Positions 1 to 25,501 of a DNA stretch of 64,000 nucleotides are shown in pieces. How positions within the stretch are numbered: the first letter of the stretch is position 1; every line of letters begins with the position of its first letter. The position numbers were made by a program, and so were the translations under genes. Below the pieces are notes generated by a model, which had not been told where the DNA came from, searched no databases, and was given only the letters and a program-made list of their open reading frames with translations. The DNA lies in NCBI GenBank assembly GCA_008690995.1, contig VRMN01000002.1:1-64000 (forward strand). The letters are read 5' to 3'. The DNA is from Porphyridium purpureum (lineage: Eukaryota).

Positions 1-2535
1 CCGTGGCAGGCTGTGAGGCCTCGTGGGCCGAGCCAGCTGGGCTGCTGCGGCACTTGGCGGGCAGTAATCACTCGGCTGAAACACTTGCCGCAGTGCCACC
101 GGACGCGCTCAGAGCGGTTGGGCTGGCACGCCGGGCGTGCGGCGCGATGTGCTTGCTGCCTGCGCTGTCCGTGCGCCACCAGCGCAGTCGATGCCGGGAT
201 CCTGCGCGTTGTGCTGTGGCATTTGACGGGCAGGGTGGTCGCGTGCAGTCTGCACAGCAAACGGGCGCAAGCCGGAGCGTGCGATGACACTCGCAGTGGC
301 TCCGACACGGCCGCAGACACGCATGTGTCGACGGCGCGTCACGCCGCTGCGCATCCGCCGTCGCCGCTGCTCGACGCCCCCATACTCACCATTCTTCAAA
401 CGGTAGATTGGGTGCTGGGGCTGCGCGTGCGCACGTGGAAGCGCGTACCGGCAAAGTTTGCGCCGGACGTTGCGCTCGAGTTCAGCAGCATGCTCACGGA
501 GCTGGCCGAAGCCGCGTCCGAGGCCGCACAAGTCCGCGCGCTCGGAAAGCTGTGGGTGTTTCCGACTTTGGTGCTGTGCCTGCCCATGGAGCGCCAGAGC
601 ACGCGCGCGCGGGCAAGATACCTGGCGACGCGGCTCAAGATGTGGCGCTCCGATGCGCTCGAGCCACTGCTCGACTCGGTGCCTGTGGTGGACGGTCAAC
701 ACCTCAGACCCATACCACCAGAGGCCGTGGAGCACCGCATCGTGCAGCATGTGCGCGCCAACCACATTGGCGCCGCGGCGCGACTGGTCGAGTCGGCGGG
801 TGTGCACGACGTCACGGACTCGGTGCTGGCGCGCTTGCGCGAGCTGCATCCAGAGGCAGGGGCTCGCAGCGGCAGCCACGACGCAGCGCTCGTCGCACCA
901 GTCGAGTCGGTCAGTATCGACCAGCTGCAGTGCATGCGCGTGCCGTGGGACGCGCAGGCGGTGCGCAAGTCCATTCTGGCCATTCCGCACACCAGCGGGT
1001 GCGGACCGTCGCGGTGGTCCATAGGCGTGCTGCAGCAGGTCATCCGCACGCCCGTGGCGGGTGACACGGCGCTCGGGGCCGTGGCTCTCGCGTTCAAGCG
1101 CATCGCCAGTGTTGGTCTGCATCCGCAAGCTGGCGCGCTGTGGAGCCACGCACGCCTCATCCCGCTCAAGAAGAAGGACGGCGGCGTCCGACCGATTGCA
1201 GTGGGCGAGCTGCTGCGGCGCGTGCTGGGCAAGCTGGTGCTGGCACACCTGGGCAGCGACGCAGCCGAGTCGCTCCGGCCCGACCAGTACGGCGTGGGAC
1301 GCCCGGCCGGGCTCGAAGGCGCGGTGCTGGGGACCTTGCCGCGGTACAGAGTCAGGCACAGCCATTGCTGCTCGTCGACATTGCGAACGCATTCAACTTC
1401 TGCGATCGACCGGCCCACGCTGATGCGCATCGTGCAGGGCCGTTTCCCCGCGCTGTGGCCGCTGGTGCGCTCAACGTACGCGCATCCGGCTCCGCTGCGA
1501 GTGGGCGCCCATGTGCTGGCCAGCGCGTGCGGCGTGCAGCAGGGCGACCCGCTGGGGCCCTTGCTGTTCTCGCTGGTGCTGCACAAGGTGCTGGCAGACA
1601 CCGAGTCGCCGGGTCTGTCGTCGTTCTGGTACTTGGACGACGGCAGCATTGTGGGGCCGCTCGCGCAGCTGGAAGGCTTCCTGGACGCCTTTTCGAGCGA
1701 CGCGGCCGCGTACGGCATGCGCGTGAACCGCACCAAGACGCAGCTGGTGCTTCCGCCAGGAACGCAACCGGCAGTCGTGCCCGCGGGGCTCGCCGACCTG
1801 CCGCGTCTGGCGTGGGACCAAGCACAGCTGCTCGGTGTGCCGCTCGACTTTACCGGCAGTGGCGAGTCGCTCGTGCCGATCACCAACGCGAGCGCGCAGG
1901 TGCTCCAGCTGGCGGAGCAGGTGGCCAAGCTCAGCCACCCCGAAGAGGCGTTCTACCTCCTGCGGGGCAGCGTCGGGCCAAAGCGCCTGATGCACCTGGC
2001 GCGCACCATGCCTCCGCCCGTCGTGACTCGCATCTTTGCCGAGTTTGACCGCGCGTGGCGCAGCATTGTCGCGCGCGCGCTGGGTGTGATGGCACACGAG
2101 GTCGGCGAGCCGTGCAAGGCCGAGTGGCGGCTGCCGTGCTCGCTTGGCGGCTTGGGACTGACCGCAGTGGCAGACATTGCGCCGTTTGCGTTTGCCGCCG
2201 GCAGTCGTGCTGCCGCGCGCGTGGTGGACAACCCGCCCGCACGCGTGTACCCTCCGTCGCTCGCGCAGTGGTGGCGAAGGTTTGACGGAGACGCACACGC
2301 CGTGGCGCAGTGGCGCCTGGAGCCAGACGAAGATGTGGAAGCCCTGCTGGACTCGCAGGCACGTGGGAGCCGTCGCTTTTATCGACAATGGTGCTCAGAT
2401 TGGTCCCACGCGCCGGCCCCGTCCGACCCAGACTTTCACCGACGTCGCAGCGTCAGCTCGCCGCACGCGCTGGCGTGGCTCGGGATGCCGTCTGCCACGC
2501 AGCTGGCCGGCACGCACGGAAGCGCGCCGCTGAGC
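1..2535 (+). mobile_element. CRE-like non-LTR retrotransposon, family A copy 1 (cut by the window start; 3'-truncated before the endonuclease)
   Basis: Near-identical to 4437-6967. RT motifs RLIPLKKKDGGVRPIAVGE, QYGVG, GVQQGDPLGPLLF, WYLDDG and LPCSLGGLGL are present. Identity ends at ...gcgccgctgagc (2535). Confidence 0.85.
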
Positions 2536-3745
2536 TGCACAGATGCATGGCGCGTGGCCGTGCCAGCAGCAGCAGCAGCAGCATGCGTGGCCCGACCAAC
2601 TCCTGCGGACAAGGTGGCTTCTGTGCCCGATGCTGCACGAGCTTCTGGGCGTCCGCCAGCATCGGCCGCGCCCAGAAATCAGCGCGGCCCACAGCTCGGG
2701 CCCGCTGAATGCGCCGGCATGCATGCCGCCTGTCGTGCCCGGGGTGGATGGAGCTGCAGTCTCCGACCCACGGTATGGGACAAGGAGTCAAGGACGCCGT
2801 CCGGATGATAATGTCGACGAGCATGCAGAGCCGCACGGGCCGGACGGAGCACACGGGCTCAGCGCTGCAGCCGCATTCGTTCCCGGAGTTGAGCAGCTTG
2901 GCTCGCCGGAAGACCGTGACGACGGTGACGCCGCGACCGGTGACGAGGCCATGCCGTCAGCTGGGTCAGACTCGCAAGGCGAACCGGACGGAGGACAGCT
3001 CGTCGACGCTGCAGGCGGCTCTGCTCAGCCAGATGCCGCCCTTTCACGCAGCGCCGAGTCTGTGGTCGGCGATGCAGAGGCTTCAGATGCCCCCGGACGC
3101 AAGAATGATGCTGCTCCGGGGATGGCCCACGCTAAGCGACCCGCCGCTGCCGCGTTATCGCGCACGGTGTCTCCGTCCCGGGCTACTCTGCCCAAGCGTT
3201 CCCGGGCGGCTGCAGAAGTGCCTAGCGTGACGGCGGAAGCAGCGCAGCAAGAGTCTGCAGCAGACAGAGGCGTCGCGCAGGCGCAGCAGAACAGTGCGGG
3301 TCTGAGCACTGCCGCCTGTCTGTTGAATGACGCTGTGCAGCATGCACCAGTCGCCGGAACTTGACGCCGGCGACTCGAGCCGTTCCGAAAGCTCGACGAG
3401 GCGCTGGTGCCGCCCGTTTCCGGCCCGTTTGTTCCGGAGCGGCGCGCGAGGCAAGCATGGTGCGCCACGCGTCCGCGCCACTGTGGCGCGCATGGCATCA
3501 CGCGGTCTCGACAGACGCGCTTGCCGAGGCAGGACTCGCTGCAGACCCGTGTGGAGCATGGCATGCGCTCAGCGGCTCTGCGCACTCTCGGGACCAGCAC
3601 CGCGCACGCTGCATGCAGTGCAAGACGGCCCACGCCCACCGTTCCGCAGTGGGCCGTGCCAGCGGCCAAGAGTTTGCCGCTCCCGCACTTCCGGAGGTCC
3701 ACGCTGTGACTCCGGCTCCCTCGGCGGCTTCGCCCTTCGGGGCTC

Positions 3746-6700
3746 ATGAGTGAGACACTTTCTGACTCGTGGGAAGGGCCCGGTCCGCGCGGCGCAAGTC
3801 TTCTAGCCTCAAGTGAGGAAAGCGACGCGGAATGGGCTCCCGCACGCCCCCGCGCTCGTCGAGCGTCTGGGCGAGGCCGGCTACAAAGTCGGCCGGGTGG
3901 ACCAGTGGAACTGCGTGAGCGTGCTGGTCCTGCGCGAGAGAGTGCGGTGGTGGATGCGCACATCTCCAGCTCTAGGGTGCTGGCAGCCACGCACGCGCCA
4001 GTGGCATCTCCGCACAGTGTCGCAGACTCGGCAGACGGTCGCGCCACACGTCGGTCCGCACGACGACCGCGCCAGCGTGCGGGGCCTGCCGCACACATAG
4101 CGGTCAGGGATGCCGTGCTTGGCCACAGCGCATCTGTTCGCAGCTCTGCTCGCATGCTCCGTCCGGCGGGCTTTGACATTTCGCGACGCAGCGTGGCTCG
4201 GATGGCGCAGCTCGAAGCGCCGCACGCATGTCCGGCCGCCGAGTGCATGCGACGCTACCAGAGTGCGGCTCAGCTGGGCAAGCACTGGCGTGCGGCACAT
4301 CCGACGGAGCCAGCGAGTGCCGAGCTTCTGTCCAGCCTGCACTTGAGGCGAAACGCGTGCGGATGGGCGGTGCGAGACGTGCAGCCCCAAGACGCGTGCC
4401 AGTGTCCAGCGTGCCGAGCGCTGTGGAACGCGTGCCCCGTGGCAGGCTGTGAGGCCTCGTGGGCCGAGCCAGCTGGACTGCTGCGGCACTTGGCGGGCAG
4501 TAATCACTCGGCTGAAACACTTGCCGCAGTGCCACCGGACGCGCTCAGAGCGGTTGGGCTGGCACGCCGGGCGTGCGGCGCGATGTGCTTGCTGCCTGCG
4601 CTGTCCGTGCGCCACCAGCGCAGTCGATGCCGGATCCTGCGCGTTGTGCTGTGGCATTTGAAGGGCAGGGTGGTCGCGTGCAGTCTGCACAGCGAGCGGG
4701 CGCAAGCGGGCATGCGATGACACTCGCAGTGGCTCCGACACGGCCGCAGACACGCATGTGTCGACGGCGCGTCACGCCGCTGCGCATCCGCCGTCGCCGC
4801 TGCTCGACGCCCCCATACTCACCATTCTTCAAACGGTAGATTGGGTGCTGGGGCTGCGCGTGCGCACGTGGAAGCGCGTACCGGCAAAGTTTGCGCCGGA
4901 CGTTGCGCTCGAGTTCAGCAGCATGCTCACGGAGCTGGCCGAAGCCGCGTCCGAGGCCGCACAAGTCCGCGCGCTCGGAAAGCTGTGGGTGTTTCCGACT
5001 TTGGTGCTGTGCCTGCCCATGGAGCGCCAGAGCACGCGCGCGCGGGCAAGATACCTGGCGACGCGGCTCAAGATGTGGCGCTCCGATGCGCTCGAGCCAC
5101 TGCTCGACTCGGTGCCTGTGGTGGACGGTCAACACCTCAGACCCATACCACCAGAGGCCGTGGAGCACCGCATCGTGCAGCATGTGCGCGCCAACCACAT
5201 TGGCGCCGCGGCGCGACTGGTCGAGTCGGCGGGTGTGCACGACGTCACGGACTCGGTGCTGGCGCGCTTGCGCGAGCTGCATCCAGAGGCAGGGGCTCGC
5301 AGCGGCAGCCACGACGCAGCGCTCGTCGCACCAGTCGAGTCGGTCAGTATCGACCAGCTGCAGTGCATGCGCGTGCCGTGGGACGCGCAGGCGGTGCGCA
5401 AGTCCATTCTGGCCATTCCGCACACCAGCGGGTGCGGACCGTCGCGGTGGTCCATAGGCGTGCTGCAGCAGGTCATCCGCACGCCCGTGGCGGGTGACAC
5501 GGCGCTCGGGGCCGTGGCTCTCGCGTTCAAGCGCATCGCCAGTGTTGGTCTGCATCCGCAAGCTGGCGCGCTGTGGAGCCACGCACGCCTCATCCCGCTC
5601 AAGAAGAAGGACGGCGGCGTCCGACCGATTGCAGTGGGCGAGCTGCTGCGGCGCGTGCTGGGCAAGCTGGTGCTGGCACACCTGGGCAGCGACGCAGCCG
5701 AGTCGCTCCGGCCCGACCAGTACGGCGTGGGACGCCCGGCCGGGCTCGAAGGCGCGGTGCTGGGACGCGCCTTGCCGCGACGCAGAGTCCAGGCACAGCC
5801 GTGCTGCTCGTCGACATTGCGAACGCGTTCAGCTGCGTCGACCGGCCCACGCTGATGCGCATCGTGCAGGGCCGTTTCCCCGCGCTGTGGCCGCTGGTGC
5901 GCTCAACGTACGCGCATCCGGCTCCGCTGCGAGTGGGCGCCCATGTGCTGGCCAGCGCGTGCGGCGTGCAGCAAGGCGACCCGCTGGGGCCCTTGCTGTT
6001 CTCGCTGGTGCTGCACAAGGTGCTGGCAGACACCGAGTCGCCGGGCTTGTCGTCGTTCTGGTACTTGGACGACGGCAGCATTGTGGGGCCGCTCGCGCAG
6101 CTGGAAGGCTTCCTGGACGCCTTTTCGAGCGACGCGGCCGCGTACGGCATGCGCGTGAACCGCACCAAGACGCAGCTGGTGCTTCCGCCAGGAACGCAAC
6201 CGGCAGTCGTGCCCGCGGGGCTCGCCGACCTGCCGCGTCTGGCGTGGGACCAAGCACAGCTGCTCGGTGTGCCGCTCGACTTTACCGGCAGTGGCGAGTC
6301 GCTCGTGCCGATCACCAACGCGAGCGCGCAGGTGCTCCAGCTGGCGGAGCAGGTGGCCAAGCTCAGCCACCCCGAAGAGGCGTTCTACCTCCTGCGGGGC
6401 AGCGTCGGGCCAAAGCGCCTGATGCACCTGGCGCGCACCATGCCTCCGCCCGTCGTGACTCGCATCTTTGCCGAGTTTGACCGCGCGTGGCGCAGCATTG
6501 TCGCGCGCGCGCTGGGTGTGATGGCACACGAGGTCGGCGAGCCGTGCAAGGCCGAGTGGCGGCTGCCGTGCTCGCTTGGCGGCTTGGGACTGACCGCAGT
6601 GGCAGACATTGCGCCGTTTGCGTTTGCCGCCGGCAGTCGTGCTGCCGCGCGCGTGGTGGACAACCCGCCCGCACGCGTGTACCCTCCGTCGCTCGCGCAG

Positions 6701-7687
6701 TGGTGGCGAAGGTTTGACGGAGACGCACACGCCGTGGCGCAGTGGCGCCTGGAGCCAGACGAAGATGTGGAAGCCCTGCTGGACTCGCAGGCACGTGGGA
6801 GCCGTCGCTTTTATCGACAATGGTGCTCAGATTGGTCCCACGCGCCGGCCCCGTCCGACCCAGACTTTCACCGACGTCGCAGCGTCAGCTCGCCGCACGC
6901 GCTGGCGTGGCTCGGGATGCCGTCTGCCACGCAGCTGGCCGGCACGCACGGAAGCGCGCCGCTGAGCGCAGATGCGGCGCGTACGTGCGGCACATGCTGG
7001 AGCCGTCTGTGAGCCACGCAGCGCAGCGTCCGTGCCTGGCGCATCGGGCAGCCTGGATGCCGTCTGCGGGGCCGCGCGCTGGACCAGCACGGTCACCACG
7101 CGCCAAGTGCCATCTCGGGCCGTCGCGGTACGGTCGGCACGCGCTGGTGGTCGACGCCGTGGCAGCCTTTGCGCGCGCCGCTGGCTTCGGTGGGAGCGCG
7201 AGGCGCCTCCCGGCGCGGCAGACCTGCACGCCGGCCGGGCGACCTGCGCGTGGACAGCACGTGGGTCGATGTGGCGGTGGTGGTGCCCGACCGCACCGGC
7301 ACCAGGCGGTCCGACGGAGCGGCACTCGCGGCAGCGGCGCGTCGCAAGCAGGCCTCCTTCCAGGCTGCTGCGCGCACCGGCGACGCTGCTGGCGTGTCGT
7401 TCCAGGCGGTCATTCTGGACACGTACGGCCGGCGCGAACAGTGCGGAGCCGCGTTTCTGGAGACTCTGGTGGCGGCGTACATGCGGCACCGTGGAGTCAG
7501 CAAGATGCTGGCGAGCACGGCGCTCCACCGGTCGCTGTCGCTCGCGGTGTACCGCTCGGTGGCGGCGGCGGTGCTTCTACGGCACCCGGGCCCGACTCTG
7601 CCAGTTGCCTCGCAGCACTGGCTGGAGACGGGCAGGCGCCTCTTTGTAGGCGAGGTACTCTCGGAATCGGAAGCAGAGTCGCACTGA
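3746..7687 (+). pseudogene. Family A zinc finger-RT-RLE polyprotein, split by frameshifts
   Basis: The ORF pieces 3746-4720, 4758-5855, 5573-7012, ~7100-7200 and 7169-7687 join into one CRE-type ORF with domains in the expected order. Confidence 0.8.
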
Positions 7688-7744
7688 CTTTGCTGATACA
7701 TAGGTACAGAGCTTAGGCCCTTTAGATTTATAATGTAAAACGAT

Positions 7745-7768
7745 TTCAGAGTAACCCTAGAGTAACCC
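7745..7768 (+). repeat. 11-nt tandem unit (AGAGTAACCCT) x~2 at the family A 3' junction
   Basis: ttcAGAGTAACCCTAGAGTAACCC read directly from the sequence. Confidence 0.9.
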
Positions 7769-7959
7769 GGTTTGATCTGGGAAACCGGTATGTGTGTCAT
7801 CTGTCACGGCCAACCTCCACCTTCTCTTCTTTGCTGTATCCTGGCGGCCGCACGCTGCTCGGCATCTCAGAAAGTCAAAGCATCACAAAAATATGGTCAC
7901 AGTCTCAAGTGCACTCACGGCTGGATCGGAGATCCGGCAGCGGGGCTGAAGACTGAAGC

Positions 7960-8760
7960 TCAGCCCAGCACTATGATCGGGTCAGAACTATCTGTACACC
8001 CAATGCGGCTCTTGCCCTCTCGCGAGAACCCCGAGCTAAACACTTCCGGAGACCGCGGAACAGTGAAAACACGTGCATGGAACGGTGACACTGACAAGAT
8101 CATGGTGTTTTCGGAATCTTTTTGGCTCGAAGTCGACGGCGCTGAAAAGCGAGTATTGCCTTCGTGCGCGCGTGTGGCCGTATCGAAGAAAGAATCATCC
8201 GCAATGGCGTCGAGAGTCTGCTTCAACTCGCCCACATAAAGTTCGAGCGCTGCGCGCTACCTCCGCTCGTCGAGCTTGTTCTCCACACACCGCATCTCGG
8301 ACATCTGTGACTACCTTTGATCTGCAGCTCGTCACCGACGAGCACGCCTACAAACTGTCTAGCAACACGCACTCTTGGCGTCGCGTACTCACCCGCCTGG
8401 AAGTCGTCCCCGACACAGCCACCGATTCCAACCAATACTCCGCCGCCGAAACTCCCACGAGACCCGCAAGGTGCTCGACGCGCCTCATTCAAGCTGCGCG
8501 TTTAGCCGTTCCCAAGCGCGTGCCTTTGGAATCACTTGACTGCCTCTTCTGCTGGCCTGCATGCCTCGCGTTTGCCACACTTTCAGCGCCTAACACGCGA
8601 TTATGCTGGTACAGCAAGCGCGATAACTCGGTGCACATGCTTCACTTCTTCAACTTATCAAGATGCGCTTTCTTCTTCGTAAGCACTTCATTGGTTCCTA
8701 TACCACACCCTCCAAACTGACGTTTACACCACTGCACAGCCTGCGCGACCATGCACATGG
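7960..8760 (-). pseudogene. Decayed ORF of a dispersed repeat family of unknown identity (copy 1)
   Basis: Minus-strand peptides ELKQTLDA..TRAHEGNTRFSAP..SQ and GSFGGGVLVG..VLVGDELQ align with peptides at ~20.9-21.6 kb and ~63.5-64.0 kb. Confidence 0.55.
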
Positions 8761-8972
8761 TTCATCGAATACGTAAAGCATCCCGAGAACGCGCGGCATG
8801 GACTCCACCTTCAGGAGTATAACGAGCGGGTACCTCCAGGAGCCCGCTTATTGTACTGACTGCAGAGAATTCTGCGTCCATCTTGTATCGCAGCCCCAAA
8901 ATTAAACCTTCGCGTTTCTTCCGTTGCCATTCTCCCCCGACCTTCTTCACGGCGGCCAATTTGTTCACCGCG

Positions 8973-9523
8973 CTGTGCGTCGTCTCAGCACGTGTGGCGT
9001 ACGTGGCGTGGCTCTTTGGCAGCTCGGGCGCGTCGGTCAGGTTCTCGGTGCGTGCGTGCGCGCGGCGCGGCTCTGCGACGGGGCGCGCCGACGGGTCCTG
9101 GTGTCATTACTGTGCGTCGGTCAGGTTCTCGGTGCGTGTGTGGCGTGGCGCGGCTCTCCGACAGGAGCGCGCCGACTGGGTCCTGGTGCTCGTGCTGTGC
9201 GTCGTCCGGTGGTGCGGCGTGCGTGGCGCGGCTCTCCTGCGACAGGAGCGCGCGCCGACTGGGTGCTCGTGCTGTGCGTCGTCTCGGTGCGTGCGGCGGC
9301 GTGGCGCGGCTCCTGCGACAGGAGCGCGCCGACTGGGTGCTCGTGCTGTGCGTCGTCTCGGTGCGTGGCGTGCGTGGCGCGAAGCTCTGCGCTCCTGCGA
9401 CAGAAGCGCGCCGACTGGGTCCTGGTGCTCGTGCTGTGCGTCGTCTCGGTGCGTGCGGCGTGCGTGGCGCGGCTCTTGCGACAGGAGCGCGCCGACTGGC
9501 TTTGTGCTGTGCGTCGTCTCGGT
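8973..9523 (+). repeat. ~80-bp tandem repeat, about 6 copies, in the family B 5' UTR
   Basis: Recurring gtgctgtgcgtcgtctcggtgcgtg..gctcctgcgacaggagcgcgccgactggg, with cores near 9071, 9152, 9235, 9309, 9391 and 9472. Confidence 0.9.
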
Positions 9524-9980
9524 ACTTGCGGCGAGCGTGGCGCGGGCGCAGCGGGGATTTCTTGCGGTGTGTCGGCTATGGAGAGGGCAGGTGACGACGA
9601 CCGTAGCGCTGGTGCGCATCCGGCTCTTGGGTGCATCGTGGCACAGCGCGATAAGGCGAACCAGATGCAGCAGGACCTAGAGGCGGCCGCGGTATGCCGC
9701 GGCTTGGTCGACACGGTCACGCAGTGCGTGGCACGGATGGCCGCTCTGGGAGGGGCGCGCGCTGACGGCATGCGCGCGGCCATGTGGTCGTATGCCTGCA
9801 GCCAAGCGGTGGAGATGCTTGCGGTCTCCTGGCTGAAGTGGAACAGCGCTGAGACGCGCCCACAGTGGCAGGCGCGCAGCCGGCCCGTCCCGTGCAGTGG
9901 GCTGACCCGGTAGTGGCGGCGCAAGCAACAGCGTCACGACCGCGCAGCTGGGCGGTGGTGGCGGCCGGCCACGGCTCGCC

Positions 9981-11594
9981 GTGCTCCGCGTGCGGGTCCG
10001 GCTGCCGGCGCAGCCGAGGTTGCTTGACCCGGCTGCGCCGGCAGCCATATCAAGCGGTGCGCAAGGCAGGACCGGGTGGACGGCCCGGCAGGCCAAGCCG
10101 GCTGCCGCGAAAGGCCAGCAGACGCGCACGCCCGACAAGCGCAGAGCGGTGGAGCGCAGGCCAGCTGCTGCTCGAGCAGGCCCGGCAGGACCGGCCAATG
10201 CACTGCCCGCCAGTGCATTCGAGTGGGTGGTGGTGCGCAACTGCGACCCCACGGCGAGGCCGCAGTCGGTGCGCCAGGCGCTGAATGCGGTGGTGCGACC
10301 CAGCACACTGGTGCCGGGCGGTCCGTTTCCCGTGGAGGTGCTGAGCCTCACGGCCACCTCGTTCTTGGTGCTCGCGCCGGCTGCGTCGGTCCACCAGCTG
10401 GTCGACGTGCTGCTAACCTTGACGAGCCGGGACGCCGCGCTCCCGCTGTGGAGCGGTGCCACGAGAGCACCTGCAGTGATGGAGCGTCTCGCAGCCGACG
10501 GCTCCTGGTTGGCCGGAGTGCACCCGGACCAGCGCCGCCTGCTGGTGAGCAGTGTCCCCAAGCTGCAGAGCCGCATTGCTCTGCTCGAGGCACGCCGCTA
10601 CCCGAGCAAGCAGGCGGTGCTCTCGCGCCTGGGCCGTCTGTTGGCTGCATTGCAGGCCACGGACAACAGCAGTGGGGCAGACCGTGCCGAGAGCGCTGCT
10701 GCCGGACTTATGCTCGTGCATGTGCCTCGAGCGAGCGCGGTCGCCATGGAGGCCGAGCCGCAAGGGGTGGCCCAGGCTGAGACCCGAAAGCACGCGGCTC
10801 CAGAGCTCGCGGCTCCAGCGCGTGTGGACGCAGAGCCGGAGAATGCAGAGCTTGCGACTCCAATTCGCGCGGCAGCAGAGCCTGCGAATCCAGGTCTCGA
10901 GGCCCCCGTTCGTGCGGCTGCAGAGCCTGAAAATGCAGGACACGGGTTGGCAGAGCAGGAGACCCCCGAGCATGCTGCTTGGGAGCACGTGGCTCCAGAG
11001 GAAACTGCTGCAATGGGGACTGGGGATGGGCCCAGTGCAGCAGGGGCCGGTGCAGGTGCGTCCCATCTGCAACCGGCAATGCCCGTGGTGGAGCAGGTGC
11101 ATGGGACGCTGCGGGCCAATACAGACCCGAAGCGAGCAGCTGCCTTGCCGCTGTCGCAGTCCCAGAGCCCAACGGCAGCGGTCCGGGCTCCCAAACGCGT
11201 GTGCACCGTGACGGAGCACAGCGGGAGCGAGGACGAGTCTGAAGAGGACGTCCCGCTCTCGCAGCCGAGCCAGGGCTTCACGTGCCCAGTGGCTGCGTGC
11301 TCACACACCTGCTTCGACGCGAAGCAGTTCGGGTGGCACCTGCGGACGGCGCATTCGCAGCAGGAGCAGGCCGCGGTGCCGGCCCACTGCTATGCAGACT
11401 GCGGACTGGGCGTCTACAGTTGTGGACGGCCAAGGCCCCCCACTGTGACCAGCCAGGTGGCCAGCAACCACCGCAGGCGGTGCGACCTGTGCATGGGCTT
11501 GACGGGAGCCCCTGCTTCACAGGCAGAGCCCGACACCGCCGCTGCCACTGCAGCGGAGTCCGTGCTGCCTCAGGGCGGCGCGGCCGCGCAGTGA
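9981..11594 (+). CDS. Family B upstream ORF (ORF1-like) with a C2H2 zinc finger
   Basis: 537-aa ORF with CPVAACSHTCFDAKQFGWHLRTAH and three ~15-aa AEPENA-type repeats. The true start is probably upstream (~9578) across a frameshift. Confidence 0.55.
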   Translation: MLRVRVRLPAQPRLLDPAAPAAISSGAQGRTGWTARQAKPAAAKGQQTRTPDKRRAVERRPAAARAGPAGPANALPASAFEWVVVRNCDPTARPQSVRQALNAVVRPSTLVPGGPFPVEVLSLTATSFLVLAPAASVHQLVDVLLTLTSRDAALPLWSGATRAPAVMERLAADGSWLAGVHPDQRRLLVSSVPKLQSRIALLEARRYPSKQAVLSRLGRLLAALQATDNSSGADRAESAAAGLMLVHVPRASAVAMEAEPQGVAQAETRKHAAPELAAPARVDAEPENAELATPIRAAAEPANPGLEAPVRAAAEPENAGHGLAEQETPEHAAWEHVAPEETAAMGTGDGPSAAGAGAGASHLQPAMPVVEQVHGTLRANTDPKRAAALPLSQSQSPTAAVRAPKRVCTVTEHSGSEDESEEDVPLSQPSQGFTCPVAACSHTCFDAKQFGWHLRTAHSQQEQAAVPAHCYADCGLGVYSCGRPRPPTVTSQVASNHRRRCDLCMGLTGAPASQAEPDTAAATAAESVLPQGGAAAQ

Positions 11595-11916
11595 GACCCT
11601 GCATGTCCGGCCCGTTTGGGGCACAATGTTGGACTCAGGGGAAAATGACTCTGCTGCCACCCACGCCGGGCAGTCAGAGCAAAATGGGGCCTCCACAAGG
11701 GATGGCACATTGGACCAGCCACGGGCTGGAGGCGTGGGAAGCCTGCAGGGGCAGGCGGTGTCCATGCGACGCGTGACGCGGTCACAGACGCAGGCCCGCC
11801 AGGCCGTCTCCGAACCCGGCTTGGTCGCGGACCCAGCTGCGCGCGCGAAGCAGACGCGGACCGGGCAGCCAATGTGCCGGTGGACCGGGTCGCGCGCAGA
11901 GTGACCAGGCCGACTC

Positions 11917-14900
11917 GTGCACGGAGCTGCACGAGCAGGAGACGGTCCAGGGCCGTGGACCGGGGTGCTGCAGCGGTGGCCGCGAGTCACGATACCCGGG
12001 CCGCAGGCGAAGCGGCCGACGAGGAAGCGTCTGGCCCTGACCCGGTGCATGTACGCGCAGAAACGGCAGGTCGCCGCCAGCACGCGAGGCGCGGTCAACG
12101 CCGGCAAAGCAGGCCACAATGCCTTCCGTGCCCGCTGGCCCACTGCTTGTTCTCACATCTTGCCGACGCCAGCGGGCAGCCGGGTCGCCATTGGGCAGCC
12201 ATGCACTCGGCAGAGCCCGCGGGCCGTGAGCAGCTGGAGGCCATGGCCTGGTCAGGAACGCGCACGGCCACGCAGTGCAGGTGACGTGCACAATGCGCCG
12301 TGCCCGTGCGCATCGTGTGTGGACGCCCGACGCGCGCGCCGGTGTCCGGTGGCAGAATGCCCGGCGGCGTTCCCGGCCGCAGAGCCCCTGTTGTTACACA
12401 TGAACCAACATGCTTCTGCCGCACGGGACGCGGTGGACCCCAGCACATGGACGAGCCTGGGCCTGTGGCGATGGCCGTGCGGCAAGCTTGCGTTGCTTCG
12501 GAGCCTGCAAACGGGGTCAAATGCAGCCACCATGCACTTGACCCGGTGCACTGACGACCGGGAGGCCTGCAGGCTTGCTGCTGAGCGCCTGCGGCACGCG
12601 TCCGAGCAGGTCGAAGTCACGCCGCTGGAGTGGGACCTGCGACCCGGTGTGCATGCACCCGCTCTGCTTCATGCCGAGCAAGATGCTGCACCTACTCCAC
12701 CCGCCCCTCTTGGTGACGAAGATGCAGCGGACGACGCAGAACGCATTTTTGCCGGGCTGCCGGTGTCCACAGTGCACGCGTACCTGGACAGGATACTTGC
12801 ACTGCGGGTCCACCTGTGGAAGCGGATGGCGCCGGCTCTGGCGACGCACGTGGCCCTGGAGTTGGCTGGTCTTCTGGCCGGCGTGCAGGAGGCCGAGACC
12901 GAGGAGGACCAGGTGCGCGCCATTGCACGCCTGTGGGCGTTTCCGACGCTTGTGCTCTGCCTTCCGGGGGCCCAGCAGCCGTCCCGTGAGCGCGTCCGAT
13001 TCACGATGGCGCGGCTCAAGCAGTGGCGGCAGGGAGAGCTGCCCGCGCTGCTGGCGTCCGTGCCAGAGCTGACTGGCGGGCAGCCCACCGACCTGCCGTG
13101 GCAGACGGTCAGCAGCAAGGTGGTCAAGCACGTGCGCGCCCGACACCTCGGTGCGGCGGCACGGCTGGTGGAGTCTGCCGGTGTCCACGACACCACGGAC
13201 GCGGTGCTCGCTCGGCTCCGGGAGTTGCACCCGCCAGCGACCGACGCGGCTGCCCGCTTGCAGGCCCCGTCGCACAAGCCCAGGCGCGCGATGCGCAGCC
13301 ACCGCTGGCCGAACGTGCAGTGGTGAAGAATGCAGTGATGGGTATCCCGCACACCAGTGCAGCGGGACCCTCACGGTGGTCTCCGAGCCTCCTGCACCAG
13401 GCGCTCAGCTTGCCAGCTGCGGGTGCTGAAGTGCTGACGGCCATGTGTGGGCTGTTCGACCGCGTGGTGCATCGAGGCCTGGAGCCGCAGGCTGGCGCGC
13501 TTTGGGCGCACGCCAGGCTCATTCCTCTGCGCAAGCCAGATGGGGGCGTGCGGCCCATTGCCATCGGCGAGATCTTCCGCCGCGTGCTGGGCCGCCTGGC
13601 CGTGACGAGCCTCGCACATGACGCAGTGGAGACGCTCGCCCCGGACCAGTATGGCGTGGGCCGCATGGCCGGGCTCGAGGCTATGGTGATGCGCACCCGC
13701 CTCGCCGTGCTGGAGAACCCCGGGTGGGGCGTGCTCAAGGTGGACATTTCGAACGCCTTTAATACGGTGCGCCGCCCCGCCTTTATGCGACTCGTGCAGG
13801 CCCAGTTTCCGCACCTGTGGCCGCTGGTCCGCACGTGCTACGCGAGTCCTGCGCCGCTGCGAGCAGGCAAACACGTCCTGAAGAGCGAGTCTGGGGTGCA
13901 GCAAGGCGACCCGCTGGCCCCACTCCTCTTCTCGCTGGCGCTGCACCGTCAGACCAGGGACATCACGCACGCACCCGGGCAGGCGCTGGTGCAATGCTGG
14001 TACCTGGATGACGGCGCCATTGCAGGTCCAGTCCACTCCCTGGTGGCGTTCCTGGAGGTGCTCGACCACTGTGCGCGCGAAATCGACTTGTCGATTAATC
14101 GGCGCAAGTCGGAGCTAGTCCTGCCGCCGGGTAGATGTGAGACAGACATTACGGCGCTGTCGAGCCTGCATGGCTTACCTGTGGTGCCGTGGTGCAGTGC
14201 CACTCTGCTTGGCACTGTCCTGGACACCAGCGGCGACATGGGCTGCGTGGACAGGACGCTGGCTGCGACTCTCGAGCTGGCCGACAAGGTGGCCGGCATT
14301 CACGAGCCCGAGGAGGCATACCACCTGCTCCGGGCAAGCGTGGGGCCCGCGCGAGTCGTGCATCTGGCCCGCACGCTCCCGCCAGAGGCGGTGCTGGACC
14401 GGTTCGCCGCGTTTGATGACGCGTGGCGGCACATTGTGGCGCGTACGCTCGGCGTAACGGCAGCCGACGGCCAGAACGCAGATGGCTCCTGGCGCGCAGA
14501 ATGGCGCCTGCCGCTGCGGTGTGGCGGCCTGGGCCTGACCAGCCTGCGCGACATGAGCCTGCCAGGCTTCGTTGCCGGCAGCCGCGCTGCTGCTCGCACA
14601 CTGGACGAGGGTGAGGTGCTACGCGCTCAGCGGGAAGCCGTGCCTCCGATGGCGCCTCTGTCGCGGCAACCGCGGGAGCCCCGCCGCCGCCGCGCTCGTC
14701 CGTCGCACCTGGCCAGGTGGCGACAGTTCCACGACCTCGAGGAGGCGTGGCTGCAACAGGTGCCGGGCGTCCCGGACGCCGAAGTCGAAGACCTGCTGGA
14801 TTCCCAGGCCCGAGGCCTCAGTCGCTTTATTCACTCCTGAAGAGAGACTGGGTCTCGGCGCCAGGCTCCACGCCGTCTGAACGCCTCCGCCGCCAGAGCT

Positions 14901-15708
14901 TGTCGTCGCCGCACGCAGCGGCCTGGCTGGGCATGCCGTCCGGCACAGTGCTCGGTGGCATTCCGTGGTCACCAGCATTGGGCTGCGACACGTGGTTTGC
15001 AGCCGTGCGCCACTGCCTGGGCCTCCTGTGGCTGGCGTCACGAGCGCTGTGGGCCTCCGCTGCCCGGCCATTGTCCGTGGGACAACGGCCACGTGCAACG
15101 CGCCACTGGACGCACACGGCCACCATGCGCAAAACTGCGCAATGGGGCCGACCCGGTACGGCCGCCATGCCGCGGTCATTGACGTGCTCGTCCGCTTTGC
15201 AAACCTCCGCGGGCACAGGTCCGCCGCGAGGTTCGCCTCGAGGACGCACCCCGGCACAACGGGAAGCACGACCGGCGACTTTTCCTTCGACAACAATGTC
15301 GTCGATGTTGCCGTGGTCGCGCCAGACGGTCGCCGCTCGCGCTCGGAAGCGCGGCTCTTTGCCCGCTCGCGCTGCGGCACCAGTTGGCTGCTCGGGCCAC
15401 GCAGCCAACATGGTGGCCTTTATCGTCACCACGTACGGCAACGTGGATGCGCCCGCACGTGCGCTTCTTTCCGGCTCGCGCGCGACTTTGCTCGCGTGCG
15501 CCAGGTCCGCCCCGCTTGGGCGCTGACCGTCCTTTCGCGGGCTGTGTCCCTCGCTGTGTACCGCGCCGCCGCACATGGCATTCTTTTGCGGTACCCGGCG
15601 GGACACTCGGCCCTCACGGCGAGCGGGCTGCGCTGGCTCCCCCATGTGGCGCGAATGCTCAGCTCCTCTGACCCGAGCGCCCCAATTCACGAGGTCGGCG
15701 TCCTCTAA
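11917..15708 (+). pseudogene. Family B zinc finger-RT-RLE polyprotein, split by frameshifts
   Basis: Pieces 11917-13326, 13023-14840, 14717-~15050 and 14965-15708 are homologous along their length to the family A protein (LWAFPTLVLCLP, HLGAAARLVESAGVHD). Confidence 0.82.
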
Positions 15709-15813
15709 TTCAGCTCCTGAGCTGATCCAAATTCAGCTCCGATCCGGCTGAGTCACCAATTTCCTGGATTGTTTAAATTCTAAAAATAAACTCAATTCAG
15801 AGTAACCCTAGAG

Positions 15814-16053
15814 CTCTGTTGGATGCGAAGGCCACCCAGTTCCAACGTCTTCATTGTAATGGGCAAGCACATACCTCAGAAACTTGCACTGACTGGACAG
15901 GTACGTTTTGCGTGTCCCTGCGGTAATATGGCCACGCGCTAGCTCCGCAACCCTTGCACTCGCCCGCTCACGCCGCACAGCCTCCGCGAATCCCTCCATC
16001 TTTCGAACCTTGTTCGACGGCGAGCATGCGAGCGCCAGCGCGGTTCGGCGCAA
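15814..16053 (-). pseudogene. Possible N-terminal fragment of a tyrosine recombinase (Crypton-like)
   Basis: HITAGTRKTYLSSQCKFLRYV resembles the T..Y....F..(W/Y) helix of integrase core-binding domains. The ORF is cut at the family B 3' junction. Confidence 0.25.
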
Positions 16054-16682
16054 TCGGTTCAGTGGTTTATCAAGGAGCGCAAGTAAAAAGGGATCATTTC
16101 AGTACAAGAAAAGGTGCCAGAACAAGCGGCACGTGTCTGCATTTATTACTGGGTAACTCGTGCGACCAATCATTTTTGCTAGTATGTTGTACAAACATAA
16201 TCTTGGCATAAACACAAAATGTTCCGGTCTCACCGGCACCTTCAACCTGAATAAATGGTCTAAAATGGCACGAAATGTAATAAACCTAGAGTAACCAACG
16301 TGCTCGACAGGAAAATCGCGCAGAGCCGCTGTCGATGTACTCGCTGCGAACGCGTCGACACAACCCTCCAGAACAGGTTCATCAGGGCGCATGCGCGAAC
16401 AAGCAACAGTGCGGCAGATGGCTAGACAATCTTCGCATCCAATGCTCACTGAGGTCTCGCTTCAGCGCAGGTGCGTCAGACTCAACGGACACCGCTGACT
16501 GAGCAGCGTAAGACTCTGTTCTGCTCACCCCTTTACGCGTCATGGTTGATTGGCCACCTCCGCACATGGATGACCATGCAAAGCGGCAGACTTCGGCCCG
16601 GAAAGCCCTTTGATCTTCACGTTTGGTTCAGAAACGCGAAAGCAGTCACGTTATTCTAATTTCATTTCGCCTTTGAACAACG

Positions 16683-19100
16683 CTAGCAGCCTAGTCTTTC
16701 CAAACTACTCTGCGCCGCTGCGAATCCCTGGTCTGCGGCCTTGCGGTACCACTCGACCGCGGCGCGCTCGTCCTGCGGCAGCCCGCCCCACCCGTTCTCG
16801 TAATAACAGCCCAAATAGACCTGCGCCGCTGCGTACCTCTGCTCCGCGGCCTTCTGAAACCACTCGACCGCGGCGCGCTCGTCCTGCGGCAGCCCGCCCT
16901 CCCCTTTCAGGTAACAAACGCCCAAAAGAAACTGCGCGTTTGCGTCTCCCTGTTCCGCGGCCTTGCGAAACCACTCGACCGCGGCGCGCTCGTCCTGCGG
17001 CAGCCCGCCCTCCCCGTTCTTGTACCTAACGCCCAAATTATTCTGCGCCGCTGCGAGTCCCTGGTCTGCGGCCTTGCGGTACCACTCGACCGCGGCGCGC
17101 TCGTCCTGCGGCAGCCCGCCCTTCCCGTCCTTGTAACTAACGCCCAAATTATTCTGCGCCGCTGCGAATCCCTGGTCTGCGGCCTTGCGAAACCACTCGA
17201 CCGCGGCGCGCTCGTCCTGCGGCAGCCCGCCCGACCCATCCTCGTAACAAACGCCCAAATTATTCTGCGCCGCTGCGAATCCCTGGTCTGCGGCCTTGCG
17301 GTACCACTCGACCGCGGCGCGCTCGTCCTGCGGCAGCCCGCCCTCCCCGTTCTTGTAACAAACACCCAAATTGAACTGCGCTTCTGCGTCTCCCTGCTCC
17401 GCGGCCTTGCGAAACCACTCGACCGCGGCGCGCTCGTCCTGCGGCAGCCCGCCCTTCCCGTTCTTGTAACTAACGCCCAAATTGAACTGCGCCTCTGCGT
17501 CTCCCTGCTCCGCGGCCTTGCGGTACCACTCGACCGCGGCGCGAGTGTCCTGCGGCAGCCCGCCCTCCCCGTTCTTGTAACTAACGCCCAAATTGTACTG
17601 CGCGTGTGCGTTTCCCTGCTCCGCGGCCTTGCGAAACCACTCGACCGCGGCGCGAGTGTCCTGCGGCAGCCCGCCCTTCCCGTCCTTGTAACTAACGCCC
17701 AAATTATTCTGCGCCGCTGCGTGTCCCTGCTCCGCGGCCTTGCGAAACCACTCGACCGCGGCGCGCTCGTCCTGCGGCAGCCCGCCCTCCCCGTTCTCGT
17801 AACTAACGCCCAAATTATACTGCGCCGCTGCGAATCCCTGGTCTGCGGCCTTGCGAAACCACTCGACCGCGGCGCGCTCGTCCTGCGGCAGCCCGCCCCA
17901 TCCGTTCTCGTAACAAACGCCCAAATTGAACTGCGCGTGTGCGTTTCCCTGCTCCGCGGCCTTGCAGAAACCACTCGACCGCGGCGCGCCTGTCCTGCAG
18001 CCCGCCCTCCCCTTCAGGTAACAAACGCCCAAAAGAAACTGCGCGTTTGCGTCTCCCCTGTTCCGCGGCCTTGCGAAACCACTCGACCGCGCGCGCTCTG
18101 TCCTGCGGCAGACCGCCCTCTCGTAACCCAAATTAAACTGCGCCGCTGCGAGTCCCTGCTCCGCGGCCTTGCGGTACCACTCGACCGCGGCGCGCTCGTC
18201 CTGCGGCAGCCCGCCCTTCCCGTCCTTGTAACTAACGCCCAAATTGATTCTGCGCCGCTGCGGCCTTGCGGTACCACTCGACCGCGGCGCGCTCGTCCTG
18301 CGGCAGCCCGCCCTCTGCGGCGCCGCTTCCCTGCGAAACCACTCGACCGCGGCGCGCTCGTCCTGCGGCAGCCCGCCCGACCCATCCTCGTAACAAACGC
18401 CCAAATTATTCTGCGCCGCTGCGAATCCCTGGTCTGCGGCCTTGCGGTACCACTCGACCGCGGCGCGCTCGTCCTGCGGCAGCCCGCCCTCCCCGTTCTT
18501 GTAACAAACACCCAAATTGAACTGCGCTTCTGCGTCTCCCTGCTCCGCGGCCTTGCGAAACCACTCGACCGCGGCGCGCTCGTCCTGCGGCAGCCCGCCC
18601 TTCCCGTTCTTGTAACTAACGCCCAAATTGAACTGCGCCTCTGCGTCTCCCTGCTCCGCGGCCTTGCGGTACCACTCGACCGCGGCGCGAGTGTCCTGCG
18701 GCAGCCCGCCCTCCCCGTTCTTGTAACTAACGCCCAAATTGTACTGCGCGTGTGCGTTTCCCTGCTCCGCGGCCTTGCGAAACCACTCGACCGCGGCGCG
18801 CTCGTCCTGCGGCAGCCCGCCCTCCCCGTTCTTGTAACCAACGCCCAAATTATTCTGCGCCGCTGCGAATCCCTGGTCTGCAGCCTTGCGAAACCACTCG
18901 ACCGCGGCGCCCTCGTCCTGCGGCAGCCCGCCCCACCCGTTCTTGTAACTAACGCCCAAATTGAACTGCGCCTCTGCGTCTCCCTGGTCCGCGGCCGTGC
19001 GGTACCACTCGACCGCGGCGCGCTCGTCCTGCGGCAGCCCGCCCCACCCGCTCTCGTAGCAAACCCCAAACGACATTGAGCGTCTGCGTCTCCATGCTCA
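16683..19100 (-). CDS. Sel1-like repeat (SLR) array, ~21-22 units of 37 aa (111 bp); possibly a pseudogene or cassette
   Basis: Repeats AQ(F/N/Y)NLGVxYxxGxGGLPQDERAAVEW(Y/F)RKAA(E/D)QG. There is a frameshift near 19070 (EHGDADAQCRLG / FGVCYE) and indel-garbled units at ~17960-18330. Confidence 0.88.
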
Positions 19101-20899
19101 TTCCTTGATACGGAAATAAAGAAACCATTATTCCCTCGTGCGGTTTCCTCCGTTCCAAAGCAAGGCACACCGGAGAGCGTTTTGCCGGCGCGCTCAGCGC
19201 CTGTTTTTCGCAGCTGCCGCGAGTTTCGAGGGGACTTGCGCTGAATTCATCCCTCAGCAGCCCCGTTTCGCGGTTTTCTGGCGGCGTGCGGTACAGCTCG
19301 GGGCGCCGTTGCAGTCGCGTGGAAGGGGCACGCGCGGTTGTTGTTAAAACGCGCCGTTTTGATAAACCGCGAGCGGTGGGCTGAATTAAAAGAATAAGTA
19401 CAGTGAATCCGTTAAGTGCTTGCGTACACTTCAATTGCAGGACGCTGTACATCAGATATTAATTAATGCGCGGACTCGCGTTGTTTAACAATGTGCGCTG
19501 ATGTGGGTGGCCAGCTGGATGGCTTGCCGGCTTCCAAGCATGTGCACACGGTCGCTCTTCTTCGGCCGTCTCAGCGCCGCGACTGCATGCCGCTGGGTTC
19601 TCACGCGAATGTCGGGTGCATGTTTGCCTTCAGAGGCACAGCGACACTGCATTCTGTGTCGCAGTCTTGCATCATTCCTCCCCGACGCATCTGCGTCGCT
19701 CGAGCTCGACCGCCCAACGTAGTGTACTAGGTTGCACGTGACACGCTGCCACGGCGCATGTGTTTATGGCGACACATCGGTCCTTTTGCGAGTGGGTCAT
19801 CAGCTGCGATGCCGAAAACAGGCCTGGGTGTCGAGTGAACAATTCGGAAGGGTCCAAAGAACAGCCGACATTCGCAGGCTTCTCACAGCGCAACTGGGGC
19901 ACACAAGGGAGCTGCTCAAGCCGTGCATGCTGCTGTACAATGTGGCTGGGTTCGAGCGGTTTGCGCAAGCACCATCGCGATAGAACGCTGCCGACTTAAA
20001 AGCACACCTTGATACATTCACACATGTGGGACAGCCACACTGCGTACACCCTCTAGAAGTTCCGAAGGGCAGAGCTTGACTCCATGTGGACAATTGTTGC
20101 GCAGCAGACGCATCAGCTGTTACTTTTTATACGTACCATGTGACGCATATTCGAATGGAGTCGGAAGAGGCCCCCATTGGGCCGTGCGATCGGTTCGTCA
20201 AGCTGCAGCTGCCAGAGCATGTAGCCTCCGAAACTGGATTTCGGGTTGCCTTGCAATTGAATCTGGAGGAGCATGTACGTCTTGTCAACTTGCATGTGGG
20301 GACTTTCAAGGCAGTTGCAATCACGTGACACGGACATCTCTTAGCCATGAGCTCGCTGCTGAGGCACAAGACAGCAGTCTTGTTCGCACGGGATAATTTC
20401 ACGCGGAAACCTGAGCTAAAGCTGCTTAACAAGGCGCCCTTGGACGTGACTCTGATTACGGTTCCACAAGGCATGCCTGACGCGCTGTCTCCTGGACCGC
20501 AATCTGCCTGTAAGCGGATGCATCTGGAGTCACACCAACTTACACCTCACTTGCCAGCCGCACAATGTACGCCGCGAGGATCGCACTTTCTTCACCCATC
20601 TAGGTGCCCATGACGACATGTGCGCTTCTCAACATTGACTGTTGAAGTGACGCTCATGCCAGTCAACTATCATCTTCTCTCCTTTGCCCTATCCTGGAGG
20701 CCGCATGTCAATCGACATGTCGCCAACCCACAGTATTCCAATGCCAATGTTACAAGGTACATTGCATTCACGCCTGGACGAGAAACCAGGCGACAGGGCT
20801 AAAAAAATGAAGGCCATGTTGGATCTCTGTTGTAGTGAGGGTCACAAGTAGGCCAAGCAGATTTCTTGCCGTCACGCGGGAAACCAAAGCCATGCCATT

Positions 20900-21630
20900 T
20901 CGGTGGCTGCAAGACCATGGACACACGTACGTCGAAAGTTCACGCCGACGTGGGTCATGCTATTCTCGGAATCACCTTGGCTCGGAAGCGGCGGCACTGG
21001 AAGGCGTACATTACCTTTGCGAGCTTGTGTCGCCAAGTAGAAAAAAGCATTGCGCGAAGTGGCGTCGAGACTCTGCTACACCTCGCCCAGACAAAGCTCG
21101 AGCGCTGCGCGATACCTATGCTCGTTCTCGAGCTCGTTTCCCGGACATCTTATCTGGACAACTTTTTCCGCCTCCACCTCTGACTCGTCGCCGACAAGCA
21201 CGTCTACATACTTGCCTGGCAACATGCCACCTCCCGCGTTGAAGTCTTCCGCTTGGATTTCGACCCGGTCAAAGTCAGCGCTTCCAACTAATGATCGACA
21301 AGCGAAGCTCCCGGTACACCTACTGGGTGCTAGATGAGCGTCATGCGCGCTGCACTTTGGGCCGTCTCCAAGCATGTGTCCTTACAACCACTTTGCTGTC
21401 GTCTCTGCTTGCCTGCGGCGATTGCCTCTGCCGCCTTCTTAGCGCTCGGCGTATGGCCATGCAGTCAAAGGAATTGCGTCGTCCCGGTGTGTACACTCCA
21501 ACTCTTCAGCATGTCGACCAGTGCCTTCTTTTTGGCGAGCAATTCCTCAGCTCATGCGTCGCAGCCTGCAAATTATCGATTGTACTATCGCATAGCCAGC
21601 GTGTGCTTGCACTCACGTAGCACAACCACG
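20900..21630 (-). pseudogene. Decayed ORF of the dispersed unknown family (copy 2)
   Basis: GSFACRSLVG..GGMLPGKYVDVLVGDESEVEA..AALELCLGE aligns with copies 1 and 3. Confidence 0.55.
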
Positions 21631-21663
21631 TGACATATCACAATGATGCGCAGCATGGGCGAC

Positions 21664-22046
21664 TGTGAAGAGAACTTCCAAACCCTCGCGACGAGCTCGA
21701 CGTTGACCCGTGGCGGGGCCCACGCTTGAACCCGCGATTGCGATTACCCGAGGGGTCATCGCCAATGGGGGGCATCAAAGCGACGATCGGTACGCGCAGC
21801 GGACCACCACGAGCGTGCGCTTTGCGAGCCTCAGCCCGCCTCGTTCCGGGGGCGCGAGGCTGAGGTATAAAAAGAGGTGCCCGAGTCCTTGTCATGATGC
21901 TTGTCTAGACTGCGAGGCAGAGATGAATAGGTACTGACGTATAAAGGTACCTTTGTAACCAGAAAGTCATCATCTCTCGGTAAGGAGACGGCACGCACCA
22001 TGGCATTCATCTACGTTCGTGTCCGCGATCATAATCCTGTTTCACA
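21664..22046 (+). mobile_element. Putative solo LTR
   Basis: Inverted termini TGTGAA...TTCACA and an internal TATAAAAAG. The first ~220 bp recur at 25286-25498. No TSD seen. Confidence 0.5.
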
Positions 22047-22593
22047 GTGTTCTTGTGGAAGCTACTTAATCTCTCCTTCATTGCGCCTATTTGGTCAGTT
22101 CAGAATGCACAGGAACGCATGTGATCTCATACGTCGTTCCAAGGTTGATCCACGTTTCGATCCACACAAACACATACGCACACACCTATGAGAAGCGCAT
22201 CAGTTCGTCGCAAACTTGGCAAACACCGCTCGCGCCGTAATGTACCAGCCCAACTCTACAGAAAAATGCACAGTATTTCTGGACTCTGGTCGTCTCTATT
22301 GGCCAGCTTGAATATCATATCGTAGCCATCTATCTCCATGGTGTGTTCCTTCTAGCAAGAGAAAGAGGCACGAGTGCGCATTAATTGTGCGACGATGTGA
22401 GCGTGTCAGCTCGGCATACCTTTCAGGCGCGACCCACTTGCCACGCGCATGTCGCCGCATAGAACAAACACATCTTCACGATGGACTCTGGGACACTGAC
22501 AAATCCCAAAACTCCACAATCATGCAGGACGTGTCTGTCGGGAAGTGCCACCAAACCCTCAAGGCGAAATGCAGCCGACCTGTCACCGCGTGC

Positions 22594-25498: not shown

Positions 25499-25501
25499 TG
25501 C

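Follow-up and report, generated by a model that had tools for sequence, protein, structure and literature searches.

The window analysed here is a stretch of 64,000 nucleotides (nt) from the red alga Porphyridium purpureum (assembly GCA_008690995.1, contig VRMN01000002.1, positions 1 to 64,000 of the forward strand). Its left part holds two families of retrotransposons without long terminal repeats (non-LTR), named A and B, each encoding a reverse transcriptase (RT) and each ending at the same 11-nt telomere-like repeat. A previous inspection of this DNA from its letters alone, referred to below as the sequence-only reading, had proposed that both families target a telomere array. The features concerned are the following:

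1..2555, + strand: family A copy 1, left end outside the window; RT domain (RVT_1, E 8.8e-12); stops before the endonuclease domain
2556..7747, + strand: family A copy 2; zinc-finger region, RT and restriction-like endonuclease; 5´ boundary tentative
7748..7768, + strand: 11-mer tract 1; 21 nt, 1.9 units, C-rich strand on +; last 3 nt (CCC) common with the adjoining DNA
7769..8940, no strand: non-element spacer, low-copy, right boundary approximate; 68-69% paralogs at 20864-21416 and 63351-63967
8940..15798, + strand: family B, almost full length, approximate at the 5´ end; RVT_1 E 3.6e-19
15799..15813, + strand: 11-mer tract 2; 15 nt, beginning in the register of tract 1
16285..16296, + strand: 11-mer tract 3; 12 nt, without an attached RT element; spanned by contigs of sequencing runs X1, X3 and X5

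Structure and relationship of the two families

Family A copy 1 is 98.6% identical to positions 4437-6982 of copy 2. Copy 2 has an RVT_1 match at E 3.2e-12, a weak C2H2 match and endonuclease motifs read across frames. Its stop codon (7685-7687) is followed by a 60-nt AT-rich 3´ untranslated region (UTR) with TTC at its end, and it matches the named P. purpureum proteins P0005/P0006. The two copies meet at 2555/2556, where copy 1 abuts sequence of the A 5´ region at a short CAG run without the 11-mer; this junction may reflect either recombination or an assembly error.

Family B begins with an 81-83 bp tandem repeat in its 5´ part (9030-9553), continues with an upstream open reading frame (ORF) at about 9906-11594 and an RT/endonuclease ORF at about 11905-15708, and closes with a 90-nt 3´ UTR that also has TTC at its end. 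It is 96-99% identical to the named proteins P0001-P0004. The upstream ORF is long and has a zinc-finger-like tail, with no Pfam match. The A tract and family B are not adjacent, being separated by about 1.2 kb of unrelated low-copy DNA.

RVT_1 was found in three of the 57 window ORFs scanned, namely the two A copies and B. A search with the RT region of B matched 147 proteins; among the 120 listed, the top 12 comprised ten proteins labelled P. purpureum and two encoded in the window, identity being 96-99% within family B and 44-51% for the remainder. The next-ranked matches show 27-45% identity, and some are automatically labelled SLACS-like. Three Porphyridium families can be distinguished in this way, with identities of 43% between A and B (over 904 aligned residues, P0004 vs P0005), 41% between B and the third family, and 47% between A and the third. 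The third family (P0007, P0125-P0128) has apparently intact gene models and clusters with A in the named records.

Both A and B contain a non-LTR RT domain (RVT_1) with a YLDD motif and the conserved blocks, and their sole PDB matches are R2 proteins. The C-terminal part of A, B and the third family carries the endonuclease motif series of zinc knuckle (CCHC), RH, E, RPxD (RPD) and D. The series deviates in two respects: the spacing of the first C-C pair is about 10, against 1-3 in the available portion of PMC12857005, and no D/N follows RH. No APE domain was matched among the 57 window ORFs. Judged by these motifs, A and B are non-LTR elements with an RT and a restriction-like endonuclease.

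Motifs and automatic labels make A and B candidate members of the CRE clade. The label 'SLACS' is an automatic one, carried by Diplonema proteins that are 34% identical, and no reference CRE element was among the matches. A query with the endonuclease region, aimed at reference CRE elements, matched only itself; a profile search for CRE relatives returned 13 proteins, ten of them from P. purpureum and none a reference element. The Atlas search gave just unnamed RVT_1 clusters, and the viral loci gave no match. Distant relatives were found at 48 loci (L002-L049), none of which carries 12 nt of the 11-mer unit, and a clade-wide 11-mer tail is thereby ruled out. These loci are eukaryote-type RT/endonuclease retroelements lying in prokaryote genome bins, where they are probably host contamination.

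The shared 18-mer and the 11-nt tracts

The junctions of A and B share an 18-mer, TTCAGAGTAACCCTAGAG, at 7745-7762 and 15796-15813, with no other site in the window at up to 3 mismatches. The two observed matches compare with a shuffle mean of 0.01, and none of 100 shuffles reached two. The 18-mer lies 58 nt after the stop codon in A and 88 nt after it in B (stop 15706-15708). Its first 3 nt, TTC, fall outside the periodic unit and are part of the element ends. Perfect runs of at least 10 nt of the periodic unit, CCCTAGAGTAA, number three in the window (21, 15 and 12 nt), all on the + strand and holding 1.9, 1.4 and 1.1 units; the window has no array of the 11-mer. When the 500 nt 3´ of B were shuffled 20,000 times, a 12-nt run like the third tract arose in 7 cases; this tract is a candidate scar of an earlier healed end.

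The sequence-only reading had described an identical 18-mer at both sites, diverged proteins and unrelated 3´ UTRs. Both positions were verified, and the divergence is borne out by the 43% protein identity and by the UTRs (60 and 90 nt), whose alignment is no better than that of shuffles (p = 0.25). Its tandem repeat at A is present but amounts to just 1.9 units (21 nt), and its two tracts stand, although the 12-nt tract at 16285-16296 had been overlooked.

Tails, joints and flanks in sequencing runs

Twenty of the 24 sequencing runs listed, from nine studies, contain part of positions 7000-16400. Five were examined: the DNA runs X1, X2, X3 and X5 and the RNA run X21. Joints were analysed in short-read contigs of the four DNA runs (three studies), of which X1 is possibly not independent of the window.

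The stretch of the unit at A ends is 4-37 nt long and has a single fixed register (TTC|AGAG); poly(A) is absent. The sequence-only reading had named copies ending in unrelated sequence as evidence against itself; every A end seen has at least 4 nt of the unit. The longest tract measures 37-39 nt (37 nt plus the overlap). In X1, the depth is 8,500 for contigs reaching 7759, 4,525 for those reaching 7767 and about 10,000 over the UTR, against 182-290 for single-locus sequence. Taking depth as a rough proxy for copies, this corresponds to roughly 35-55 A ends, most with at least 12 nt of the unit and about half with at least 20 nt.

Eight joints were listed, five leading from an A tract into B (at 9443, 13069, 13809, 14319 and 15791) and three being deletions inside B. 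A sixth tract joint, in X3, re-enters A at 7618, its strand not being displayed, and a loose end in X5 passes from a B tract into A near 3284. Six joints and one loose end from four runs thus place copies head to tail, in one polarity, split by short tracts. A named gene model, P0003, is itself a fusion of B to the A C-terminus. Where a joint leads to an internal position of an element, 2 nt are shared with the continuing repeat in five of five cases (null 0.13 each for at least 2 nt); for the joint to 15791 the overlap is 1 nt. Two joints contain a plain 6-nt TAACCC unit.

Among the loose ends (20 of 23 rows listed; X1, X2, X3 and X21), all ten DNA rows marked as lying behind an element exit after 4-21 nt of tract. 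These ten rows represent about eight distinct flanks, none beginning with poly(A). The DNA after the tract consists of unrelated sequence or of 5´-truncated A or B copies, and two loose-end flanks sought in the window gave no match each. A contig of X2 matches 7766-8001 and then runs leftwards into other DNA; since the spacer thus continues leftwards from 7766 in X2, tract 1 meets the spacer at a shared CCC. The 3-nt CCC overlap with this X2 allele (7766-7768) and the element-free third tract look like healed breaks. Cover is lacking at 7928-9183 in X5 and at 16406-16700 in X2, which may be effects of filtering or depth.

The reading frame of B is interrupted in the window; among the indels listed (12 of 57), several that lie in the 3´ half of B are contradicted by each of the four runs. 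Many of the B frameshifts are therefore probably errors of the window sequence, and element decay was rejected as the cause of most of them.

The 11-mer as a candidate telomere unit

The G strand of the unit is TTACTCTAGGG. It has 8 consecutive nt in common with (TTAGGG)n, for which the chance in a random 11-mer is 0.0015, and it qualifies as telomere-type, being a TxAyGz-like unit with a G-rich strand; the telomere-like form noted in the sequence-only reading was thus upheld. Compared with the candidate unit of Galdieria, it is identical at 8 of 11 positions.

Data on red algal telomeres are mostly missing, according to the available portion of PMC7046594. In the 2013 survey (PMC3622300, as far as its available text goes), neither human-type nor Cyanidioschyzon-type probes gave a signal in P. 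purpureum, rhodophyte telomeres were termed recalcitrant, and three strains of red algae showed no telomerase activity when assayed with primers for other repeats. The last result is not proof of absence because of the primers used. Telomeres have been reported for Rhodosorus (PMC10250338, from the part available). In the telomere literature searched, PMC3622300 was the only paper on topic for Porphyridium. The genus is absent from the main text of PMC8287931 and from the TeloBase paper with one supplement, the database entries themselves lying outside this check. Neither the unit, in six rotations, nor the elements had a red algal description in the literature searched, a scope outside which fall most subscription papers and Repbase.

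The 11-mer was found in none of the prokaryote genomes and none of the viral contigs scanned; these collections lack the A junction, and hence the host, and the scans are uninformative. A metagenome scan showed an 11-mer run of 34 nt in the terminal short-repeat region of a T7-like phage (L001:2816-2860), which is taken as coincidence.

Positions of the elements in the genome

Named gene models of the elements number 18 and are spread over 14 scaffolds, ten of them on contigs below 100 kb; contigs above 200 kb with such models number at least nine. On one contig above 200 kb, A and the third family are at most 9 gene numbers apart. Positions were estimated by arithmetic on the gene numbers of named records, a rough measure that assumes even gene density. 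By this measure, the distance of two copies, taken together, from contig boundaries is 27-287 genes, against an expectation of about 700.

Proposed mechanism and alternatives

We consider it likely that the 11-mer is the telomere unit made by telomerase and that it is targeted by two MoTeR-like families with an RT and a restriction-like endonuclease. This reading draws on what is observed of the shared register, the variable tract length, the head-to-tail joints, the overlaps, the variant units and the domain content. The endonuclease would nick the G strand, or the element would use a free end. In target-primed reverse transcription, the primer end ...GGGTTACTCT would pair with AGAGTAA at the 3´ end of the RNA, a pairing that would account for both the fixed register in the two families and the lack of poly(A). 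Synthesis of cDNA would often halt early, or an inserted copy would break later, leaving 5´-truncated copies. These would be joined to repeat DNA through an overlap of 1-3 nt, either through a template jump or when telomerase heals a break. Repeated cycles would produce short interstitial tracts and copies of one polarity, with 5´ ends towards the chromosome end, which we infer to lie to the left of the window. Repair would occasionally internalise copies as relics, and tracts abutting truncated elements or ordinary DNA, the one without an element at 16285 among them, would come from breakage with healing. As to the proposal of a telomere array as the target, the family-wide tail, the fixed register, the head-to-tail truncated copies and the absence of poly(A) speak for it, but the flanks differ from copy to copy and the target is therefore not one uniform array.

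Several observations weigh against a telomeric target. The short sides of several joints comprise only 21-31 letters, and the 5´ junction of B shows no 11-mer. A 46-nt relic of an A end is transcribed in a single-locus context. No long array appears in the contigs examined; the pieces listed were of at least 30 nt, so that array-only contigs could not show against a 21-nt tract, and the lack of a depth spike is uninformative. The DNA after the tracts is heterogeneous, and a widely inserting element that bears a tail would also yield such flanks. Tail-primed insertion of long interspersed nuclear elements likewise yields short 3´ overlaps. Among the ends listed for the distant relatives, at least 6 of 17 show poly(A) with (TA)n or (TAA)n; the group can therefore use simple repeats that are not telomeric. 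Finally, by the gene-number estimate, the largest contig (5.7 Mb) has one or more element sites that are at least 210 genes from either end, and at least one element cluster may be internal.

Much of this would suit an inherited, non-telomeric tail or a small minisatellite, with insertion primed by overlaps, lengthening by slippage, and self-targeting by the endonuclease that leads to internal clusters. The variable tail length, the overlaps of 1-3 nt and the many flanks fit tail-primed insertion, as do the missing long array (with the limit on array-only contigs just given), the microsatellite ends of the distant relatives and the possibly internal site; furthermore, the available portion of PMC12810828 reports Cnl1 inserting into its own copies. 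Such a tail must, however, account for its identity in two families with unalignable UTRs, for the 8-nt identity with (TTAGGG)n together with the TAACCC variant units, and for a third tract that has no element as well as for joints that fall at arbitrary places inside elements, all in one orientation. We regard this explanation as unlikely, while giving it some weight.

It has also been considered that a guild of two or three families extends eroded chromosome ends through a telomere-derived 11-mer tail, in a Drosophila-like manner, with telomerase absent or minor. Reverse transcription would add each copy to its predecessor's eroded 5´ end, and the 11-mer would be what is left of the former telomere unit. 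As such growth would predict, the tracts connect to truncated copies at arbitrary points, in one polarity and with overlaps of 2 nt. The shortness of the tracts seen, the presence of element gene models on the larger contigs and the failure to find telomerase activity in three strains of red algae (PMC3622300, in its available part) agree with it as well, although that assay used primers for other repeats. The endonuclease motifs, on the other hand, have been kept, transcripts of A ends are rare (26 of 10.9 million reads, about half of them from the relic), and telomerase would account more simply for the TAACCC variants and the tract without an element; we hold this possibility to be rather improbable. 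If true, a clade not known to build chromosome ends would do so in a red alga. A multicopy RNA gene as the target (spliced-leader, small nuclear RNA or similar), as in CRE1/SLACS, has family precedent only (PMC4640811 and PMC7367193, from the parts available). The sequence-only reading had raised it as an alternative, and it is very improbable: no Rfam match reached the gathering score in the window, and none was found near either junction at E up to 1. Moreover, a gene target would give one constant flank, whereas the flanks after the tracts vary by copy. The RNA-gene target is thereby largely refuted.

Comparison with known telomere-associated elements

The telomeric mechanism favoured here is of a known kind, and the 11-mer is a good but unproven telomere candidate. 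MoTeR1/MoTeR2 of Magnaporthe oryzae and FoTeR resemble A and B in combining an RT with a C-terminal restriction-like endonuclease and in having a sense strand that runs on into the C-rich strand. They are also alike in their head-to-tail arrangement with short tracts, 5´-truncated copies, internal short-tailed relics and 5´ tandem repeats. MoTeR arrays are described in the available portion of PMC7367193 as head to tail, with 5´ ends distal, tracts of half to more than 20 units and short-tailed relics; FoTeR of Fusarium oxysporum has the same arrangement in the part of PMC12857005 available. A and B differ from MoTeR in having a red algal host, an 11-nt unit rather than TTAGGG, and two autonomous-looking families, 43% identical, with a common target. 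B further differs from the MoTeR type, described as having a single ORF, by its upstream ORF and by the lack of a telomere-like run at its 5´ end. Membership of the MoTeR functional group is not established, because B lacks this run and the terminal position is only inferred.

Cnl1 of Cryptococcus neoformans shares with A and B the arrays of full and truncated copies. CNL1 arrays lie at chromosome ends by telomeric repeats, and their target sites resemble a telomere seed, according to the available portion of PMC12810828. The sequence specificity of Cnl1 is described there as undefined, whereas A has a fixed-register tract after every end seen. CRE1, CRE2, SLACS and CZAR of trypanosomatids are like A and B in domain order and endonuclease motif series, but they occupy one site in spliced-leader genes, while A and B have no constant flank and no RNA gene. 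TRAS1/SART1 of the silkworm and HeT-A/TART of Drosophila are telomere-resident non-LTR elements. They have an APE endonuclease or none and poly(A) tails, in contrast to the restriction-like endonuclease and the absence of genomic poly(A) in A and B. The polarity of A and B is TRAS-like and HeT-A-like (for SART1, PMC7265360, from the part available). The Galdieria candidate, TTTATT(T)AGGG, is like the 11-mer in being red algal, 10-11 nt long and ended by TAGGG; the Galdieria unit was observed at scaffold ends, whereas the Porphyridium 11-mer is known to date from element junctions alone.

Red algal telomeres are described as largely unknown, and the direct experimental survey failed on P. purpureum. 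The 11-nt candidate provides a template with which to seek red algal telomerase RNA, which a published survey did not find. If the telomeric reading is true, MoTeR-type targeting of telomeres would reach beyond fungi into Archaeplastida, and two or more long-diverged families would have one target in common. It would also explain the strain-to-strain instability of the element regions in an alga used in biotechnology.

Relics, transcripts and neighbouring segments

The 46-nt relic corresponds to the A 3´ end (7714-7759), with 2-3 changes and unique flanks, and is present in the DNA runs X1, X2 and X3. In X21, it accounts for 12 of the 26 A-end reads. Five RNA reads have poly(A) after 7754, inside the first unit, their source being either the relic or full elements. 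Since they stop within that unit, a host transcript may obtain its polyadenylation site from the relic. Five RNA reads cross the tract into other DNA, with the first mate mostly on +, which in a stranded library would correspond to the direction of the G strand; strandedness is not established, and these reads were not used as evidence.

To the right of family B, two further features were delimited:

15814..16284, no strand: non-coding segment, adjoining the B tract with a 1-nt overlap; no Rfam match; no second copy in the window
16683..64000, no strand: flank with many Sel1-repeat, DUF285 and kinase-Sel1 genes, and with Tc1-like and LTR elements

The non-coding segment recurs in other contexts, in an X2 record of 4103 nt and at X3 loose ends at 15813, 16286 and 16287, and is possibly a non-autonomous mobile unit. 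It terminates in an A-rich stretch with AATAAA.

The flank may be subtelomere-like. Expanded gene groups lie at 16683-19097, 22594-23838, 43716-48493 and 50223-53453 (Sel1-repeat, DUF285 and MLKL-N-like/kinase/Sel1). One DUF285 gene has a PKD domain, and another stands beside a sulfotransferase-like region. The MLKL-N-like/kinase/Sel1 genes resemble an immune or cell-death architecture, the MLKL_N match being weak (E 5e-4). An LTR-type element on the - strand (54755-58965) has gag/Ty3-capsid and protease matches with an RVT_2 (copia-type) match directly after the protease, and direct repeats are found near 54704 and 59668.

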